From positions 6,176-70,175 of the IMG/VR virus record IMGVR_UViG_3300001525_000178: a DNA stretch of 64,000 nt; one strand, given 5' to 3'. The notes under the pieces were generated by a model. That model was given only the letters and a program-made list of their open reading frames with translations, made no database searches and was not told where the DNA came from. Positions 2,040-60,607 of this stretch are shown piece after piece. This DNA comes from a virus. Its lineage: Duplodnaviria; Caudoviricetes. The position numbers were made by a program, and so were the translations under genes. Each line of letters opens with the position of its first letter. Position 1 is the stretch's first letter.

Positions 2040-2308
2040 TATCTCCTATATTCTCCTTTTTTCGAATATTGATTTCCTTTAAAAATATCACTTTCTTTAA
2101 CATTTATATAATCAAAATCTTCTACTTCAAGTTTTAATTTATGTTGTAAATATTTTCTTAAAATATGTAATATTTTATTCAAATCCATTGTTTCACATGA
2201 AATAATCTTATAATATTGGTCACATAAATAATATTTACCATTATAACTTTCATGTAATTCACAATTACATACTTTGCATAGTTTTAAAATTTTGTTTAAT
2301 ACATTCAT
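2039..2308 (-). CDS. Hypothetical protein (CxxC motif)
   Basis: ORF track; start/stop overlap with neighbours. Confidence 0.6.
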   Translation of the reverse strand: MNVLNKILKLCKVCNCELHESYNGKYYLCDQYYKIISCETMDLNKILHILRKYLQHKLKLEVEDFDYINVKESDIFKGNQYSKKGEYRR

Positions 2309-2532
2309 TATTTAAACTCCGTTTTAAAGTGCATAGACATATTGTTTGTATAAAGTGGAATATTATGTTTTTGTGCTAACCTTACAAAACGTTCTTTAGA
2401 TATTTTTATATTTTTACACAACTGATTATCATACAGATATAAAACCTCTTGAGTTCTAATACAAGCAAACAAAGTACGCTTACCTTGTTCAATTACTACG
2501 TTGTCAAGCAAATGTTGTGTTAATACTTTCAT
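2308..2532 (-). CDS. Hypothetical protein
   Basis: ORF track; coupled. Confidence 0.6.
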   Translation of the reverse strand: MKVLTQHLLDNVVIEQGKRTLFACIRTQEVLYLYDNQLCKNIKISKERFVRLAQKHNIPLYTNNMSMHFKTEFK

Positions 2533-2541
2533 ATTTATTCC

Positions 2542-2922
2542 TTATAAAACTTTGTTAATGACATATCTTGTTACGTTATTGCAATAATCTTCTAAATATG
2601 ATAAGATTTCACCATATTTATTTTCAAGACCTTCATAGGTTTTAGCACCTTTTTGTTTCTTTAATATTTTAGCAATTGTATCATATAAACATTCGATATG
2701 TTTCCTATCTTCACAACTACTATCAGTATAAGCGTCCAATTCTTGTTCTAAAGATTTTACTTGTTGTTTTAAATCTTTTAATTGCTCTTGCATGCTATCA
2801 ATTGTTTCGCTTGTATCAGATTTTAATGTAAAATAACACTCTGTTTTACAAGTACAAGAATATGGGCAATATTCTTTTTGTTCTGCGTCTTGATAAAAAT
2901 TACATCTTTTAAAATCTAACAT
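2542..2922 (-). CDS. Hypothetical protein (Cys-rich N-terminus, coiled coil)
   Basis: ORF track. Confidence 0.6.
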   Translation of the reverse strand: MLDFKRCNFYQDAEQKEYCPYSCTCKTECYFTLKSDTSETIDSMQEQLKDLKQQVKSLEQELDAYTDSSCEDRKHIECLYDTIAKILKKQKGAKTYEGLENKYGEILSYLEDYCNNVTRYVINKVL

Positions 2923-3269
2923 TATTTCACCCCATACATTACATCGCCATAAATCATATTAAGGATATTGTCGATTTCTGTTTGCATATCTTTATATAAT
3001 TCTGCTTCTTTTTGTTTAAACACCATAGGTTCGGTTCTTGCGTCTAACATTCCATACAATATTTTTGTATCGTTTACAATAATGTAGTAATAGTATGTAA
3101 ACATATCTTCATCTGTTCCTTGTTCTTTTTTATTTGAAATAGAAAAGATATTTTTTGGAACAACATAATTATTTTTTGCTTCTTGAATTTCGTAAATTAC
3201 TTTGTTCAACTTTTCTTTTGGTAATAAAACAGCCATATAACCTTCTTTCTTTTGTTCTATCTTTAACAT
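2922..3269 (-). CDS. Hypothetical protein
   Basis: ORF track; downstream of promoter 3275-3303. Confidence 0.6.
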   Translation of the reverse strand: MLKIEQKKEGYMAVLLPKEKLNKVIYEIQEAKNNYVVPKNIFSISNKKEQGTDEDMFTYYYYIIVNDTKILYGMLDARTEPMVFKQKEAELYKDMQTEIDNILNMIYGDVMYGVK

Positions 3270-22037: not shown

Positions 22038-22155
22038 TGAACGATACAAGGCTCGAACTTGCATTTCTTATATCTATCATCTCATAAATTCCCTTTGATG
22101 AAAAGTTGGTCGCTTTTTCGATATAAGTGTGTTATTCCTTTGACACTAATCGCTC
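22038..22155 (-). ncRNA. tRNA-like RNA with a 44-nt insertion in the anticodon loop
   Basis: Acceptor GAGCGAT/ATCGTTC, D arm GTGT/ACAC, T arm GCAAG-TTCGAGC-CTTGT, anticodon stem CTTAT/ATAAG enclosing 51 nt. Confidence 0.75.
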
Positions 22156-22169
22156 ATTAAAAATTGTTT

Positions 22170-22242
22170 GAGTGATAGGTGGCTATTAACCACATCTTCT
22201 AGCCACAACGCTAGACATTTTAAACTTAAACTACGTATCACC
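22170..22242 (-). tRNA. Degenerate tRNA-His(GTG)-like gene
   Basis: Acceptor GGTGATA/TATCACT, anticodon stem TCTAG/CTAGA with 8-nt loop CGTTGTGG, degenerate T loop TTAATAG. Confidence 0.5.
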
Positions 22243-22254
22243 TTGTTTACTAAA

Positions 22255-37064: not shown

Positions 37065-37994
37065 TTATTGCCCTTTATCTGGTATCCATAACAAACTTAA
37101 GGCATTTGTATTTCCAGCCTTATATTTATATGTATCACCTTTTCCTATTCTAAAATTAAAGAAGTGTCCACCAGATGAACCACCAATTCTCATTTGTGAA
37201 CCATTTACTGTAAAATAACAAAAAGAACCTAAATCTGATTGAACAAACAAAGTTCCATCTGTTTCGGCAGTATATTCGGTATCATCTAATCGAACTTCGC
37301 CACCGCCATAATCTGGTATTCCAGCGTTTCTTAAGCGTGTGCTTGGAAATCTTCCATCTTCATTTAAAATTCTATATCCAAGAAAATTTAAAGTCTTTGT
37401 TGCATTATTTATCCCAGCACCTATTTGACAAGCAAATTCTGCTGTTGCTTTCGCATTTGGACCAATTGCAAGTGCATTGTCTGCTGTTGCATTGTTTGAT
37501 ACAAAATCTTTATCAGAATTTACCCACTTTTGTTTGTCAATGTCATAAACAAGTGCTTCGCCGTCTGATATTGCTGTCAATTCAACATCTGGCATATTTG
37601 TTAATGAAACATTGTCAATTTGTGATTGAAGTTCGTTATCTTTTTCAACCCTTGCTGTTTGTTCGTTATCAAGTTCAATTTTAAAACATAATGGAAGTTC
37701 ACCATTTTCACCAACAGCAACATATTCTTTTCCATCTTGTGTAACTGCTGTAAGTTTTACAATATCCGAACCATTTATTTGTTTCAACTTCAAACCATTG
37801 TTAAAGGTTTTTTCACCTTCAATCGTTTGTTCGCTATCATCTGTTGAAACAAGACTTAAATCGTGCGATGTTTTATTTCCTGTTAAAAGAACGTTATTTA
37901 TATGTGGTTTGTCAACTAAATCATTATAATCTGTTGGTTCTTGTTCTGTTTGTTCAACCTTTGCGTGTGCATGAAAAATTTTCTTTCCAAACAT
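37065..37994 (-). CDS. Tail-associated protein with YadA-like repeats
   Basis: DYNDLVDKPHIN.V.LTGNKT, ISDGEALVYD...WVN, NALAIGPNAKATA. Confidence 0.6.
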   Translation of the reverse strand: MFGKKIFHAHAKVEQTEQEPTDYNDLVDKPHINNVLLTGNKTSHDLSLVSTDDSEQTIEGEKTFNNGLKLKQINGSDIVKLTAVTQDGKEYVAVGENGELPLCFKIELDNEQTARVEKDNELQSQIDNVSLTNMPDVELTAISDGEALVYDIDKQKWVNSDKDFVSNNATADNALAIGPNAKATAEFACQIGAGINNATKTLNFLGYRILNEDGRFPSTRLRNAGIPDYGGGEVRLDDTEYTAETDGTLFVQSDLGSFCYFTVNGSQMRIGGSSGGHFFNFRIGKGDTYKYKAGNTNALSLLWIPDKGQ

Positions 37995-37997
37995 AAA

Positions 37998-38162
37998 TTA
38001 AAATCCTTTAAATCTAAAAATAAAATAAAATGCTTTTATCTTTTCTGTCCATTTGTCCCAAAAGAAAAATCTTGGAAGTTCTTCGTGATGAAATCCTTTT
38101 TCTTTTTTATTTTGATTTGCTTTGTCTGCCATTTCTTGTGGCGTATTTAACTTTATATGCAT
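37998..38162 (-). CDS. Small hypothetical protein (not in the ORF track)
   Basis: Manual: MHIKLNTPQEMADKANQNKKEKGFHHEELPRFFFWDKWTEKIKAFYFIFRFKGF. Confidence 0.35.
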   Translation of the reverse strand: MHIKLNTPQEMADKANQNKKEKGFHHEELPRFFFWDKWTEKIKAFYFIFRFKGF

Positions 38163-38167
38163 GATAT

Positions 38168-38594
38168 TTATGGTTTATTAAAGTTTGTTCCTATTCTTCT
38201 ATACATGCATAGATATACCCTTACACTTACATTAGTTACACCTCGCCCCTTAACTTTAACAAGCAACCTTCTGTTTACATCTACTTGAACAATGTATGTC
38301 ATATTGCTAGTATTCCAGTTAGTACCGTCTCGACCATTATAAAATTCTCCAACACACGTATATGCTTCACCGTCGTCTGGTAATACTAATGATAAATCTA
38401 AAGTATAAGTACTACCCTCTTTTGCAGTAGTCGTCTCAAGTAGTTTATATCTATTTTTCCCCCCCCTCCCAGCCGTATGCGTCAAAATATTTATACGTAC
38501 TTGCTGAAACATTATTGAAATCACGGTCTGCTTTATCATTTAATTGTTCTGACCAAATATTAAGGTCTGTATTTATATCTTTATCTTCTGCCAT
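38168..38594 (-). CDS. Short fibre-tip paralog, frameshifted at a G8 tract (OFF state as assembled)
   Basis: ATG 38594 MAEDKDINTDL...EGGEK-stop; removing one G at 38459-38466 joins YTLDLS.VLPDDG...YRRIGTN, homologous to the C-terminus of 39070-40977. Confidence 0.8.
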
Positions 38595-38596
38595 GT

Positions 38597-39052
38597 TTAT
38601 GTCCTCGCTTGTAATTCATCTTGTGTAATTTCGCCATTTGCAAACTTAAATAGATTATCAAGTTGTTCGCTTGTTACACTTAATTGACTAGCCATTTGGT
38701 CAAGCAATGGGTTCTTTCTTTGCAGTTCAACACATAAATCCCATTCTAATTGTGCTTGTTCGTCTTGTGCAATTAATTCTTTTAAACTTGTATATGAAAC
38801 ACCGAATTGTTGCAACACAAGTGCAAAAACACGCTTTGTACAAGTTAGATTTCCAACACGTTCTGTTTCTCGTTGGATTAATATATTATCCCATTCTGGA
38901 TTTAATACAATTTCACCGTCTTGGTAAATATATTTTTCATATTCATAATCTTCAAATAAATCTTCCTCTACAGGAATGTTAGTAATGTTTAAACACTTTG
39001 CTTGTCCTTTACCAACAATTTCATTATTTTCTACAAAAATATAATAAGACAT
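38597..39052 (-). CDS. Tail fibre assembly/chaperone-like protein
   Basis: Directly downstream of the fibre; RKNPLLDQMASQLSVTSEQLDNLF motif. Confidence 0.6.
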   Translation of the reverse strand: MSYYIFVENNEIVGKGQAKCLNITNIPVEEDLFEDYEYEKYIYQDGEIVLNPEWDNILIQRETERVGNLTCTKRVFALVLQQFGVSYTSLKELIAQDEQAQLEWDLCVELQRKNPLLDQMASQLSVTSEQLDNLFKFANGEITQDELQART

Positions 39053-39069
39053 ATTTTCTGTTCCTTTCC

Positions 39070-40977
39070 TTATCTATTTGTTCCTAATCGACGATATTTT
39101 GAAAGAAGAATATCACATTTTTGTGGGCTATATGCAGAAATACTAAGATGTAATGTACGATTAGTGTCTACAATAGCACAACCTTCAGCATATCCTTGTT
39201 GAAAATTAGTACCATCAGCGTCAAATCTCATTGTTCTGTAATAAGTAGGATTAGTTGCAGAGGGGTTATATGCTTTGTCATAAAGTAGGCATACTGTGTT
39301 AGTTCCAGAACTATCAGAACGTGCTACAGAACCACATACCCACACCTCATAATCATAACCGTCGTTTGGCAACCAAGTAGACAAATCTAATGTATATTCA
39401 CCAATTGCGGTAAAACTAAAAAACTTAGCAGTTGGAAAAACCCATTGTCCATCAAATCTTTTAGCACCTGTACTTGAGATGTTATTGCAATCGAAATCTA
39501 CCTTTGAATTGAGTTGTTCTGCATTTAATCCAGCAGTTTGTTCAATTGCGTCTTGTGTATAATCGCCTACATAGAAGTATAGATACATTTGACTTGCTCG
39601 TTGTTGTACAGGTGCGTTGTCTTTGTAGGTTGATGACGATTTGTTAGCCGAAAAAGAAACTTTTTTATATCGATTATTTTCGCCACTAGAGGGGCTATTA
39701 GAAACAGTTGATAAAGAAAAAGCCCCAGACGCAGTACTTGAAGAAGGTCCGCAATGTACGGTTGAAATACTACCAGTAATATTCGGTAAACTTTCAGTTA
39801 CATATCCGCCAACAGTATCACGCAAGCCTACAAAACCATATTTTGTTCTTGGCAATTTAAAACGTGTATTTGCCGTGTCTAAAACATAATACCAAGCAAC
39901 GCCTGTATTTGTATATTGTTGCAACGCATATTGTTCTTGGTCTGCGTCTAAAATGATAAAACCATTGCTTGATGTATGTGCAAACGTACCATTCCACACA
40001 GTACCAATTGAACAATTTGGAATATTAAATGTACCCAAGAATGGATATGTGCTACCAGTATTTAAACCAAATCGAACAGCTTGCGAACCACCATTTGCTA
40101 ATGTTGTGCTTGCGATTGTAATTTCAGTTGTTGTAGTTGCACTTTCGTCACTCAAATTTGTTAATTCAAGCGTATAGTTTGTTCCATCGTAATCTAAAAT
40201 TAATTTATAATTTGTGCTTGGTGTTAAAACGGTTGTACCAACAACTGTACCGTCTGCGATATCGTTCGCTGTACCGTTTGATGATAAATGTAAAGTTAAT
40301 TTACTATCTGTATTAATACCAATATTTACGCAATAGTTTGTACCAACAACTTGTTGTTGTGTTGTTACATCTGAACCTGTTGTAAAATCAAATACCATTG
40401 GAAACATTGTTTCTTTTGTAGTACCAATATTTACAGTCTTTGATATATAATTTGAAGTAGAAAAACCGCTTGCAATACCTTTATCTGATACAGCAATTGT
40501 TCCTTGTTTATCTGCATTAATTGTAACTTTTGCGTTTACATCATTCCATTCGCTAAGAATTTTATTATAAGAAGATGTATAAACTTCACCACTTTGCCAA
40601 GAAAAAGTATCTGCACGTAAAAAACGAACATCATTCAATTTATGGTCATACCAATTAAACGATAATAAAGGTGGTGCATAAGCTGAACGCCAAGTAGCGT
40701 CTGTACCGTCTGAATATAGATATTTTCCAGCTTGCCCTGTTTGTGCGGGCAACGATGAAACGTCACCCCAAGAAGGATTTTGTCCGTCGGTTGTTAAGAA
40801 TTGTCCAGAATGTCCTGTTTGTGAAGGTAAATTTGAAGGTACTATTTCAGCTACATATTCAGCCATTTGTTCCATTGTAACTTTTTTATCTATATCACTA
40901 TCAGAAACGTCTGTCATGATTAAAATATCATCTGGTGACAATTCTGTTGCTTGTTTTTTATCGTTAAATCTAACCAT
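39070..40977 (-). CDS. Long tail fibre protein
   Basis: LPSQTGHSGQFLTTDG repeats, beta-sandwich middle, ESLPNITG, variable C-terminal tip. Confidence 0.85.
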   Translation of the reverse strand: MVRFNDKKQATELSPDDILIMTDVSDSDIDKKVTMEQMAEYVAEIVPSNLPSQTGHSGQFLTTDGQNPSWGDVSSLPAQTGQAGKYLYSDGTDATWRSAYAPPLLSFNWYDHKLNDVRFLRADTFSWQSGEVYTSSYNKILSEWNDVNAKVTINADKQGTIAVSDKGIASGFSTSNYISKTVNIGTTKETMFPMVFDFTTGSDVTTQQQVVGTNYCVNIGINTDSKLTLHLSSNGTANDIADGTVVGTTVLTPSTNYKLILDYDGTNYTLELTNLSDESATTTTEITIASTTLANGGSQAVRFGLNTGSTYPFLGTFNIPNCSIGTVWNGTFAHTSSNGFIILDADQEQYALQQYTNTGVAWYYVLDTANTRFKLPRTKYGFVGLRDTVGGYVTESLPNITGSISTVHCGPSSSTASGAFSLSTVSNSPSSGENNRYKKVSFSANKSSSTYKDNAPVQQRASQMYLYFYVGDYTQDAIEQTAGLNAEQLNSKVDFDCNNISSTGAKRFDGQWVFPTAKFFSFTAIGEYTLDLSTWLPNDGYDYEVWVCGSVARSDSSGTNTVCLLYDKAYNPSATNPTYYRTMRFDADGTNFQQGYAEGCAIVDTNRTLHLSISAYSPQKCDILLSKYRRLGTNR

Positions 40978-54379: not shown

Positions 54380-54857
54380 TATTAGTTAAACTCTCTAATA
54401 TCAATTCTTCTTGTGTATTAGTTATCCAACTTCTTTTATCTTGAACTTCAATCCCAAGATTTTTGATATAATCAACTATATCTTCTTTGTCGATTGAAAA
54501 ATCTGCTAAGAATTGGTGCAAAGGTCTTTTTGTTTCTATCTTTTTTTTTATAACCTTTTTAATATATCCTAATTCCAATAAATTGTCCAAACTTTCTTTT
54601 GTAAATTCTTTATAATCTACAAAATCGTTCCAAGAATACTTGCTTTTACCAGAAGATAAATTACCAATTTGACAAATAAAATCGCATTGTTCGTTCGGAA
54701 TATCCTCAAAACAATTTACGTCTTTTAAATCTAAATCAATATAATCTGTTGGACAAAATTCGTAAATATCACCAACATTTAATTCTGGTCTGTTGTATAA
54801 AGGAATTGCGTCGACATGACGTACAACATTCATTGGAATTAAAACACTTCTATTCAT
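54369..54857 (-). CDS. Hypothetical protein with IF2 N-terminal-like C-terminal domain
   Basis: KRPLHQFL...IDKEDIVDYIKNLGIEVQDKRSWIT...ELI. Confidence 0.45.
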   Translation of the reverse strand: MNRSVLIPMNVVRHVDAIPLYNRPELNVGDIYEFCPTDYIDLDLKDVNCFEDIPNEQCDFICQIGNLSSGKSKYSWNDFVDYKEFTKESLDNLLELGYIKKVIKKKIETKRPLHQFLADFSIDKEDIVDYIKNLGIEVQDKRSWITNTQEELILESLTNNGN

Positions 54858-58164: not shown

Positions 58165-58905
58165 CTAATATTTATCGCCAATCAAATCTAAAATTATCAA
58201 AGCAAATTCTTTATGCTCTTTTCCACCGTTTTTGATATAATTATTTAAGAAACTACATACCCTTCTAGATTTTATTCTTGAAGATATTTTTGCTTCTTCA
58301 ATTTCATCTTTGGGTGGTTCAAGATTTAAACTTAAATAACTTTTATTTATTTCGTCCTGTGTAATTCCAATATATCTTTTTGTAACTTCTGGCGTATAAT
58401 GGTTATATATTGTTTGTAATAAGGTAATATCTTTAAACTGTCTATAATGATGATAGCCGAATGTTTTTCTCATTGTATGTGTTCCAACATTCGCTTTAAT
58501 TTCTAGCGCCTTACAGGCTGTTACAATCGCCTTATATACAACAATTCTATCAAGTGGTTTATTATCTTTTCCTTTAAATAAATATTCGTCTTCATTTCTA
58601 TCTTTACAAAAATCATTCAAAAGTTGTTGCAATGAAGTTTTTATTGGAAAAGATTTTGCTTTATTTGTTTTTATTTCACGTAAAACAATTTGCTCTTTAT
58701 TTAAAACATCTTTTACTTTAAAGTTTAACAAATCCGATATGCGTAAACCGCTGTTTACACCAAATTCAAACAAAACAGCATATTTATTTTTATTGTGTTC
58801 GTTTAAATAATCAATTATACGTCTTATATCGTTTTTATCACGTATAGGTTCGACTACTTGTGTGTTTCTTCTTTTTGACTGAACTGTTAATTTTGCTTTC
58901 TTCAT
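58165..58905 (-). CDS. Tyrosine recombinase (XerC-like catalytic domain), probable shufflon invertase
   Basis: GLRISD (R), HTMRKTFGY (HxxR), YNH, KRYIG (Y). Confidence 0.92.
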   Translation of the reverse strand: MKKAKLTVQSKRRNTQVVEPIRDKNDIRRIIDYLNEHNKNKYAVLFEFGVNSGLRISDLLNFKVKDVLNKEQIVLREIKTNKAKSFPIKTSLQQLLNDFCKDRNEDEYLFKGKDNKPLDRIVVYKAIVTACKALEIKANVGTHTMRKTFGYHHYRQFKDITLLQTIYNHYTPEVTKRYIGITQDEINKSYLSLNLEPPKDEIEEAKISSRIKSRRVCSFLNNYIKNGGKEHKEFALIILDLIGDKY

Positions 58906-58990
58906 AAATACCTTCTTTCTTTTTGTTTATGTTTTAATAAAATAAACACATAAATCAAAACGGTATTTCAAAGATATTTACAATACTAAT

Positions 58991-59238
58991 TAGCAAGTTT
59001 AATATTTCAATGGGGTTACGCAAACATACCCGCAAATAAAACCTCTATAGCCGTAAATTTACCTACAGCATTTTCCACAGTATATTCTGCAACCGCAACA
59101 CACTTGTCTAATAATAGTTCGACAAATAGTTATCACATTGTGTCTCTAGCAAGAACTAACACCGCTACCCTAACCTTGTTAGGAGTTTCAGGGAACAGTG
59201 TGAATATGGCGACTGCTTTTCTTGCAGTAGGCTACTAA
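58991..59238 (+). other. Silent fibre-tip cassette 1 with head site TAGCAAG
   Basis: ASLIFQWGYANI...LPTAF...FLAVGY*; no start codon, in-frame stop upstream. Confidence 0.85.
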
Positions 59239-59486
59239 TAGCAAAACTAATCATACAATGGAATAATAGGGCGTCAATGTCATCTACGTATGGTATATAT
59301 CAACTACCTATATCTTTTAGTAGCAACATATACTATGTAGCACCATCAGACGCGACCAATGCGGACGCCAACACAAGTGGAGCAGGTACTTTCTCTATCA
59401 TTAGAGAGAAAACTACTCTATCTGCATTTAAGGTAGTATGTAGTAATATTGCTGGTGCATTTATGTATCTGTGTATAGGCTACTAA
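59239..59486 (+). other. Silent fibre-tip cassette 2 with head site TAGCAAA
   Basis: AKLIIQWNN...LPISF...YLCIGY*. Confidence 0.85.
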
Positions 59487-59487
59487 A

Positions 59488-59759
59488 TAGCAAGTTTAAT
59501 CGTACAATGGACAAAAACATCAGTTATTACTGTAGCAAATAACGTTAGTGTGGTTGTTAAGCCTACTTTTCCAACTGCTTTCAGATATGGGAATAAATAT
59601 CGAACTTTTGCTTGCTTTACAAATGGCTCTGATAGTAACTGGGCACGTACTGGACTACTCGCACACACAAGTGGTACAGCCTCAACTGCACATATATCGT
59701 TCTATTGTCATGACTATACATCAGTAGTCTGTGCTGCCATATTTGCAATAGGCACATAG
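59488..59759 (+). other. Silent fibre-tip cassette 3 with head site TAGCAAG
   Basis: ASLIVQWTK...FPTAF...IFAIGT*. Confidence 0.85.
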
Positions 59760-60007
59760 TAGCAAATTTAATAGTTCAATGGCTGAAAAACGTTATTGTA
59801 GATAAAACCATCTATAAAGACGTTTCTTTACCACTGTCTTTTTCTTCTACTTCTTATGCATTGTTAGGTACGCATGGCACGTCCTCTACTTCTCAAGCCC
59901 CTGCGTCTTGGGTAATAGGGTTGGGGCAATTAAGTGCTAATAAAATCAGAGTTACAACAGGGAGTACAGGGACTGTTGGACAAGACATTTTTGCTATTGG
60001 TTACTAA
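59760..60007 (+). other. Silent fibre-tip cassette 4 with head site TAGCAAA
   Basis: ANLIVQWLK...LPLSF...IFAIGY*. Confidence 0.85.
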
Positions 60008-60232
60008 ATGCCAATAGTAAACCAAAAACATTCAGTATGTTCATTTTTTCTTGAGATGTATTTCTGACTGTAATGTAAAAATAGGAAAGAGTTTTGTTGT
60101 ATGTAGATATATAAAAAGAGGAGTTCTCATTTCTAAACAACGATACTTGAGGAGAATAAAATTTAGGATAGGTAACAGGGAGTGAAACCTGCGTAAAACT
60201 TGAAGATTTCCCCCATTGCAACAAACTTGCTA
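60004..60232 (-). other. Inverted fibre-tip cassette 5 with head site TAGCAAG; 1-nt frameshift in an A6 run
   Basis: ASLLQWGK...LPVTY...; adding one A at 60044-60049 restores ...ECFWFTIGI*. Confidence 0.8.
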
Positions 60233-60607
60233 GTAAAATATGTTGACTGTCTATCAATTACACCAAATATATAAACGTTCGTTGCAGTTGGTCGAACATC
60301 TGTCAAGGTAATACTATATTGTTGTGACGAGAATGGTTTTAGTAATTCTATATTTTCTGTACTAATACTCGTTGAACCTTTATCGTATAAACCACCTTGT
60401 TCACACCAACCATCAGACCAAAGACGATACCATTGTGTACCATCTTCTGATTTACCTGTTTCAACTACGGTAGTGACATTATTTAATCTTACCCCCCCCT
60501 GTGTGGGCTGGGTCGGTATTATAAGCATTTCTATCCATTTTGTCGTTTAATGCTTCTGACCAAACGTCTAAATCTGTGTTAATATTTACATATTTATCTT
60601 CTGCCAT
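60163..60607 (-). CDS. Short fibre-tip gene (gp53-like domain), frameshifted at a G8 tract, abutting the cassette array
   Basis: ATG 60607 MAEDKYVNINTDL...HTGGGKIK-stop; removing one G at 60492-60499 joins VVETG...WYRLWSDGWCEQGG. Confidence 0.8.

Follow-up and report, generated by a model that had tools for sequence, protein, structure and literature searches.

Both of the paralogous fibre-tip genes described here keep a pure run of eight G's (G8) at their hinge, with a common N-terminal motif before it and different tip domains after it, and we consider it probable that both tracts are hypermutable poly-G contingency loci, each of them OFF in the consensus sequence. The window, that is, the whole stretch of 64,000 nucleotides that was analysed, corresponds to bases 6176-70175 of a single virus contig of 70,175 bp (JGI/IMG) with a GC content of 31%, and nearly all genes of this phage genome are carried by the minus strand.

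In minus-strand order the terminase gene (63770-62079) comes first and is followed by the gene of a Mu-type portal (62045-60621, PF06074). Between the end of the portal gene and ATG 60607, the start of the first fibre-tip gene (gene 1), there is a gap of 13 nt, and a Shine-Dalgarno-like ribosome-binding site, AAGGAA, lies 9 nt 5' of the start codon. The N-terminal ORF of gene 1 (60479..60607, minus strand) encodes 42 aa, starts MAEDKYVNINTDLDVWSEALNDKMDR... and shows a MAEDK...LNDKMDR motif; its stop codon, TAA 60481-60479, is found four codons past the G8 tract. The tract itself (60492..60499 on the minus strand, read as C8 on the plus strand) occupies codons 37-39, at the hinge where the N-terminal motif gives way to the tip domain. 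The gene body lies in the +1 frame (60163..60498, minus strand), which is open from upstream of G8 to 60163 and comprises 111 sense codons plus a stop at 60165-60163. It encodes a fibre-tip domain of the form VVET..WYRLWSDGWCEQGG..LLKPF, its translation being VRLNNVTTVVETG...WYRLWSDGWCEQGG... and, further on, ...VRLNNVTTVVETGKSEDGTQWYRLWSDGWCEQGG...LLKPF... With one G fewer gene 1 becomes a single ORF of 147 aa, and with two more one of 148 aa. The initial annotation had described the minus-strand ORF of 42 aa from ATG 60607 that ends just past the tract, the run of exactly eight G's, the body in the +1 frame and the joining of the two frames by G7 or G10, and all of these details were confirmed.

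The same annotation had called the body 'gp53-like', a name that the body itself bears out only weakly. A Pfam search of the gene 1 body gave no match to Gp53-like_C (PF21882) at E<=0.01, and the intact relative P0003, described below, reaches 20.5 bits over profile positions 3-84 of 84, under the Pfam gathering cut-off of this family, which is 24.9 bits. On the other side, the body is clearly the C-terminal domain with which long fibres of the viral contigs L001-L007 end, and in those fibres the L-N-x-K-x-D motif stands immediately before the VVET..WYR.WSDGWCEQGG domain, in the same frame.

The paralogue, gene 2, is organised in the same way. Its N-terminal ORF (38451..38594, minus strand) encodes 47 aa, starts MAEDKDINTDLNIWSEQLNDKADR... 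and is preceded by GAGGA 7 nt 5' of ATG 38594; its G8 tract is located at 38459..38466 (minus strand), the frames are again joined by G7 or G10 and the direction of the shift is the same as at the first tract. The body of gene 2, in the +1 frame (38168..38467, minus strand), has 99 sense codons plus a stop, and with one G fewer the gene would encode 141 aa. The first 36 residues of gene 1 and gene 2 are 61% identical. Reading gene 2 with one G fewer gives a protein that aligns colinearly with the C-terminal ~150 aa of the 635-aa tail fibre encoded by the same phage (39070-40977; E 4e-10), from the LNDKADRDFNN motif to the C-terminal YRRIGTN; in all the collections searched, this fibre was the only relative of gene 2 that we found. 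The DNA flanking the two G8 tracts cannot be aligned, the sole common feature being an A directly before each run, and genes 1 and 2 are therefore old paralogues.

Such tracts are not what the composition of this genome would produce. From base composition, ~0.06 G/C runs of at least 8 nt are expected in the window, while the whole 70,175 bp contain just two G/C runs of at least 6 nt: both are G8, both are on the coding strand and both are at the hinge of the paralogous genes. Moreover GGG is the rarest Gly codon (6.1% in 71 long ORFs), and GGGGGG is used for 2 of the 67 Gly-Gly dicodons, namely at the G8 tracts themselves. Since the two tracts are pure despite the rarity of GGG and the divergence of their flanks, we conclude that tract purity is maintained.

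We also evaluated whether the shifted frames behave as coding sequence. Off-frame stops have a frequency of 9.4% per codon in this genome, or one per ~11 codons, and the longest off-frame open stretch elsewhere in long genes is 77 codons, against 111 and 99 in the two bodies; the chance of finding bodies open to this extent is P ~2e-5 for gene 1 and ~6e-5 for gene 2. Read with one G fewer, gene 1 aligns with the intact 152-aa P0003 through the tract, at 70% identity over 100 aa (E 3e-50). These results support the view that each pair of pieces is one gene broken only at the tract. Decay of the downstream frame, part of an outcome that the initial annotation had set against its own reading, was thus looked for in both genes, and none was found: both bodies are open over their full length and colinear, across the tract, with uninterrupted homologues.

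The same data bear on whether the two genes are just decaying, through one-off frameshifts at a mutation-prone run, as accessory tips heading for loss and with no reversible switching being maintained. The consensus is OFF for both genes, in gene 1 the frame is disturbed a second time where it meets the cassettes (see below), and the small tips are perhaps dispensable in a phage that possesses other fibres, of 635 aa (39070-40977) and 309 aa. However, the fully open frames are not what decay would leave behind where off-frame stops are so dense; in addition, both N-terminal ORFs still have a start codon and a ribosome-binding site, and the G tracts are still pure in the two diverged paralogues and in a relative, although GGG is strongly avoided. 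With both frames intact and the purity of the tracts conserved, simple decay seems quite unlikely.

The length of the tract could be compared with one other genome. A profile built from the two N-termini was searched against a set of 1.84 billion representative proteins and returned one close relative, P0003, together with a handful of distant small proteins that have the N-terminal motif and a variable body, with no tract. P0003 is encoded on a Logan contig of 3,045 bp (L008, run ERR2144984), directly after a portal gene 95% identical to that of the window. At the homologous site L008 reads ACA GGG GGG GGG TTA AGG, a G9 which is in frame (T-G-G-G-L-R-L-N-N-V) in a protein of 152 aa, while the window reads ACA GGG GGG GGT AAG, a G8 which is out of frame. 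The G9 is the only G/C run of at least 6 nt on that contig. The comparison is one of two genomes (n=2), G8 versus G9, and L008 differs from the window also by one T beside the tract; within these terms, the pure G run is conserved in the lineage and its length differs, the gene being ON in L008 and OFF in the window. A G7 had been proposed as the length to be looked for in relatives: the only close relative has instead G9 followed by TTA, and it is in frame.

Further close relatives were searched for in IMG/VR (by protein, by alignment and with a degenerate DNA pattern), in JGI metagenomes, GTDB genomes and INPHARED phages, in a collection of 5.8 billion proteins, in the set of 1.84 billion representatives and by exact-protein look-ups, and apart from L008 these searches yielded only distant members of the family. 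The distant members of the family (P0004-P0009, P0011 and L009) are without the tract. Among them, P0004-P0008 and the gene at 586-1150 of L009 encode small (119-165 aa) uninterrupted proteins with no G tract and no Pfam family, in which a motif M-S/N-D-I/V-N..LEALNDKxDRDxNN is followed by unrelated variable bodies, the same build as in genes 1 and 2.

The tip gene of L008 ends with the canonical ..QWEAKGY.. strand. An AlphaFold2 model of P0003, computed from an alignment of 8 rows, had a pLDDT of 40. Farther along the same contig, at 2130-3043, a gene of 249 aa that belongs to no known family is followed by a third small gene with a similar N-terminal motif (..ALSEAINEKMDRD..), and no recombinase or cassette array is present on these 3 kb. 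The gene content after the portal thus differs between L008 and the window, and the post-portal space is in this lineage a variable fibre-tip island.

The in-frame relative is also relevant to a different explanation, in which G8 is fixed and the body is reached by programmed recoding, either through a +1 slip of the ribosome with tRNA-Gly on GGG GGG G or through slippage of the RNA polymerase; a constant fraction of full-length protein would then be made, in a set ratio to the short N-terminal peptide. Ribosomal +1 frameshifting and transcriptional slippage were the alternative already named in the initial annotation. This explanation accounts well for the fact that exactly G8 and the same +1 shift are needed in both paralogues. 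A +1 slip on GGG GGG re-pairs perfectly and yields the protein of the G7 gene, and the low usage of GGG makes a pause at the tract conceivable. Programmed +1 frameshifting is known in prfB and in the capsid and tail genes of Listeria phage PSA, and the occurrence of such shifts in phage structural genes counts in favour of recoding; the likeness to these cases is that a +1 shift is needed for the downstream frame of a structural gene.

However, unlike in prfB and PSA, the context of the shift site is not conserved between the two paralogues beyond the A that precedes the run, and the slip codon is not followed by a stop or by a rare or hungry codon, the 0-frame codons after the run being common ones (GGT, which makes up 49% of Gly codons, and GAA). 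Nor is there a stimulatory structure, as the downstream RNA folds no better than shuffled sequences (z -0.68, +0.57 and +0.66), and in the close relative the G9 is in frame with no need of recoding, a +1 slip there meeting a stop at once. A phage tRNA with a four-base CCCC anticodon was not found with ARAGORN and Rfam, and the 0-frame product would be a peptide of 42 or 47 aa with no obvious role. To our knowledge, transcriptional slippage in bacteria has been documented for A/T rather than G/C runs. On the whole we regard recoding as unlikely, although it deserves some consideration. For reference, the synonymous interrupted (scrambled) counterpart of the G8 context is GGAGGTGG.

It might also be asked whether the number of G's is simply wrong, the true tracts being G7 or G10, both genes intact and no switch contained in the record. 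The two tracts agree in length and in their apparent defect, which is what a systematic miscall would produce, and a G10 in gene 1 would give it the hinge length of P0003 (T-G-G-G). Against a miscount, 21 of the 22 A/T runs of 7-9 nt are inside intact ORFs and the remaining one is intergenic, so that there is no sign of a general homopolymer problem in the assembly, whose source is JGI/IMG. Besides, the assembly of L008, which is independent and comes from another run, shows a long pure G tract (G9) here too, and even if the count were wrong, a pure tract of G7-G10 would still be anomalous in a genome with 31% GC that avoids GGG. An error of this kind is in our opinion very unlikely. It should be noted, however, that programmed recoding or a systematic miscount would lead one to expect the same length and the same OFF phase in both tracts, an outcome that is only moderately likely if the two switch independently and at random.

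We therefore return to poly-G contingency loci, the reading that we prefer. Both tracts are G/C homopolymers of at least about 7 nt within coding sequence, they are in excess over base composition and codon usage, and whether the frame is intact or truncated depends on their length. Their position fits what is typical of contingency loci, being early in the gene (codons 37-44) and in accessory genes, not in the sole fibre genes. A length of G8 is at the low end of the tract lengths for which high slippage rates are known from Campylobacter tracts. According to this model, the two small paralogous genes would encode accessory tips, each made of an N-terminal shaft or docking motif of ~36 aa, a Gly-Gly(-Gly) hinge and a differing tip domain, with the hinge encoded by the pure G run in both cases. 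G's would be gained or lost by slipped-strand mispairing during replication of the phage DNA. A G7 or G10 would then give the full protein of 141-148 aa (ON), whereas with G8 or G9 translation would stop from a few to about two dozen codons past the tract (OFF). A lysate would consequently be mixed, with one or both extra tips present on a minority of its virions, a form of bet-hedging on host recognition. Three elements of this model are what we infer, namely reversible changes of length at high frequency, a receptor-binding role of the proteins and an adaptive value of the switch.

One of the two genes may in addition supply the constant part for a shufflon in which a tyrosine recombinase rearranges Gp53-like_C cassettes. 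Downstream of gene 1, at 58992..60230, there is an array of five start-less cassettes on both strands, four on the plus strand and one on the minus strand, three of which pass the Pfam threshold for Gp53-like_C. The cassettes on the plus strand start at 58992, 59240, 59489 and 59761, end with ..GY or ..GT, and are each headed by a site TAGCAAR..(9-12 nt)..CAATGG; the one on the minus strand (60230-59997) ends with ..SNQ and follows an inverted site inside gene 1. This recombination site (ACTAGCAAGTTTGTTGCAATGG..., 60211..60235 on the minus strand, with the site at 60231) is inverted with respect to the four sites of the plus strand. The N-termini of the cassettes read A-[SKN]-L-[IL]-x-Q-W or A-S-L-L-Q-W. 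Against Gp53-like_C, over profile positions 6-84 of 84, those at 58993, 59241 and 59762 score 40.3, 30.9 and 28.2 bits, and by this coverage each cassette is a whole binding domain. The array is accompanied by a gene for a tyrosine recombinase of 246 aa (58165..58905, minus strand; PF00589, 89.9 bits; phrog_216), which is presumed to be the invertase of the array. As judged from these elements, the layout is that of a tyrosine-recombinase shufflon of the Rin type, with gene 1 as its putative constant part.

The reading frames complicate this picture. When the register was compared at TAGCAA, the body of gene 1 was found to read ACT AGC AAG, while in all five cassettes GCA is a codon, and the two registers thus differ by one base; in the assembled arrangement the constant part does not join the cassettes in frame. 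The G7 or G10 product (147 or 148 aa) therefore ends at 60163 with no cassette read in its conserved frame, and past the site it carries an out-of-frame tail of 21 residues that brings its total length close to that of P0003. These 21 residues end ..FYAGFTPCYLS and loosely resemble the canonical ..W.A.GY end of the domain. If the T4 run at 60235-60238 were one T shorter, the body of gene 1 would continue into the cassette frame, and the offset may correspond to a second switch, to a non-productive state or to an error. The idea that gene 1 feeds the cassette array, put forward in the first reading of this DNA, holds as far as the gene carries the inverted shufflon site beside a tyrosine recombinase, and fails as far as its body frame is one base off every cassette. 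Similarly, an ON/OFF switch layered on the shuffling is favoured by the presence in a single gene of a non-random tract and a shufflon site, by the G8 of the paralogue and by the in-frame G9 of the relative, but no cassette is reached in the conserved frame. Owing to the one-base offset, this combination is plausible and not a clean fit. It would also be conceivable that G8 is fixed in both genes, that full tips are made by programmed +1 decoding and that the offset between body and cassettes in gene 1 is perhaps read through in the same way, giving N-peptide, short tip and cassette-extended tip at fixed low ratios with no change in the DNA; we find this version quite improbable.

The tip gene, the cassette array and the recombinase (58165-60607) are located between the portal and the prohead-protease genes, that is, in the head module. 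This is an unusual place for genes of host recognition, and the main fibres are 20 kb away (37065-40977). The tip gene has no similarity to any of 50,697 phage records (INPHARED), and matches of the capsid and the terminase have at most 29% identity and are scattered over many phyla. By these comparisons the phage is deeply divergent from known phages and is unrelated to Fletchervirus.

Tracts of this kind have been described in phages before. A preprint (bioRxiv 10.1101/2025.10.21.683753) cites Sorensen et al. 2021 (Cell Rep 35:109214) for hypermutable poly-G tracts, 7-11 G in length, within receptor-binding protein genes of Campylobacter Fletchervirus phages, which are the precedent invoked in the initial annotation. 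With those phages, to the extent that the preprint portrays them, the present case shares a pure G run in the coding sequence of host recognition, several tracts per genome, an ON/OFF state dependent on length and an AT-rich genome. It differs from that portrayal in the tiny (141-148 aa) stand-alone tips with a common N-terminal motif, in the position of the tract, which is found at the motif-tip hinge of two paralogues, and in the use of one gene as constant part of a shufflon, and also because here the case is known from sequence alone. Polymerase slippage at homopolymers, with reversible frameshifts and bet-hedging, has been reported in phages including T2 and T4 (Gomez, Barrick and Waters 2025, bioRxiv 10.1101/2025.10.21.683753); the examples in T2 agt and T4 rIIA are A runs in genes of defence evasion or lysis timing, and SSRs are under-represented in the tail-fibre genes of coliphages (bioRxiv 10.1101/2025.10.21.683753). 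Unlike those contingency loci of T2 and T4, the tracts found here are G runs and are present only in fibre-tip genes.

Concerning the shufflon, the closest layout is the Rin system of Bifidobacterium prophages, in which a phage tyrosine recombinase is encoded beside start-less, variable C-terminal cassettes of a receptor-binding protein (Mavrich et al. 2018, Sci Rep 8:12772, PMC6109161). As in Rin (PMC6109161) and in the Min, Gin and Cin systems, there are short repeated crossover sites, a constant N-terminal part of the gene and variable cassettes. Two differences from Rin are evident: the article (PMC6109161) mentions no homopolymer switch in the constant part, which is here interrupted by G8 and one base out of register, and the locus is placed between the portal and prohead protease genes, outside the tail module.

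A device of this kind is thus already known, and what is particular here is its duplication at two paralogous hinges, the shufflon in one of the two genes and the divergence of the phage. In the literature that we found, experimental descriptions of poly-G switching in phage host recognition are confined to Campylobacter phages; the present case would extend it to an uncultured phage that is deeply divergent, where it would occur twice, at the hinges of two paralogous stand-alone tips. If both layers work, a single locus would have both a stochastic ON/OFF gate and five binding domains to choose from, and this bears on how phages hedge their host range. For the annotation of metagenomes, it suggests that 'frameshifted' fibre genes should not be discarded as pseudogenes or errors.

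Other routes from the N-terminal ORF to the body were considered and rejected. A -1 frameshift would meet a TAA directly after the first tract, and internal re-initiation past the tract finds no in-frame start soon after either tract in the body frame. A tRNA-Gly of the phage able to decode quadruplets was rejected as the cause of a +1 shift, the sure genes of ARAGORN and Rfam being only tRNA-Trp and tRNA-Met and the odd tRNA-like genes having no CCCC anticodon. These odd genes, two in number, are located between tRNA-Trp and tRNA-Met (22038-22250) and were missed by ARAGORN at default settings. In one of them the anticodon arm carries a long insert; the other has, by eye, an apparent TGT anticodon loop, and ARAGORN, with a lowered threshold, lists it as a tRNA of unknown type whose anticodon has two bases. 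An anticodon for Gly, or one of four bases, is absent from both. Finally, the longest A run of the genome, an A9 at 54541-54549, lies within an intact ORF of 162 aa in the structural module and is a possible further slippage site.
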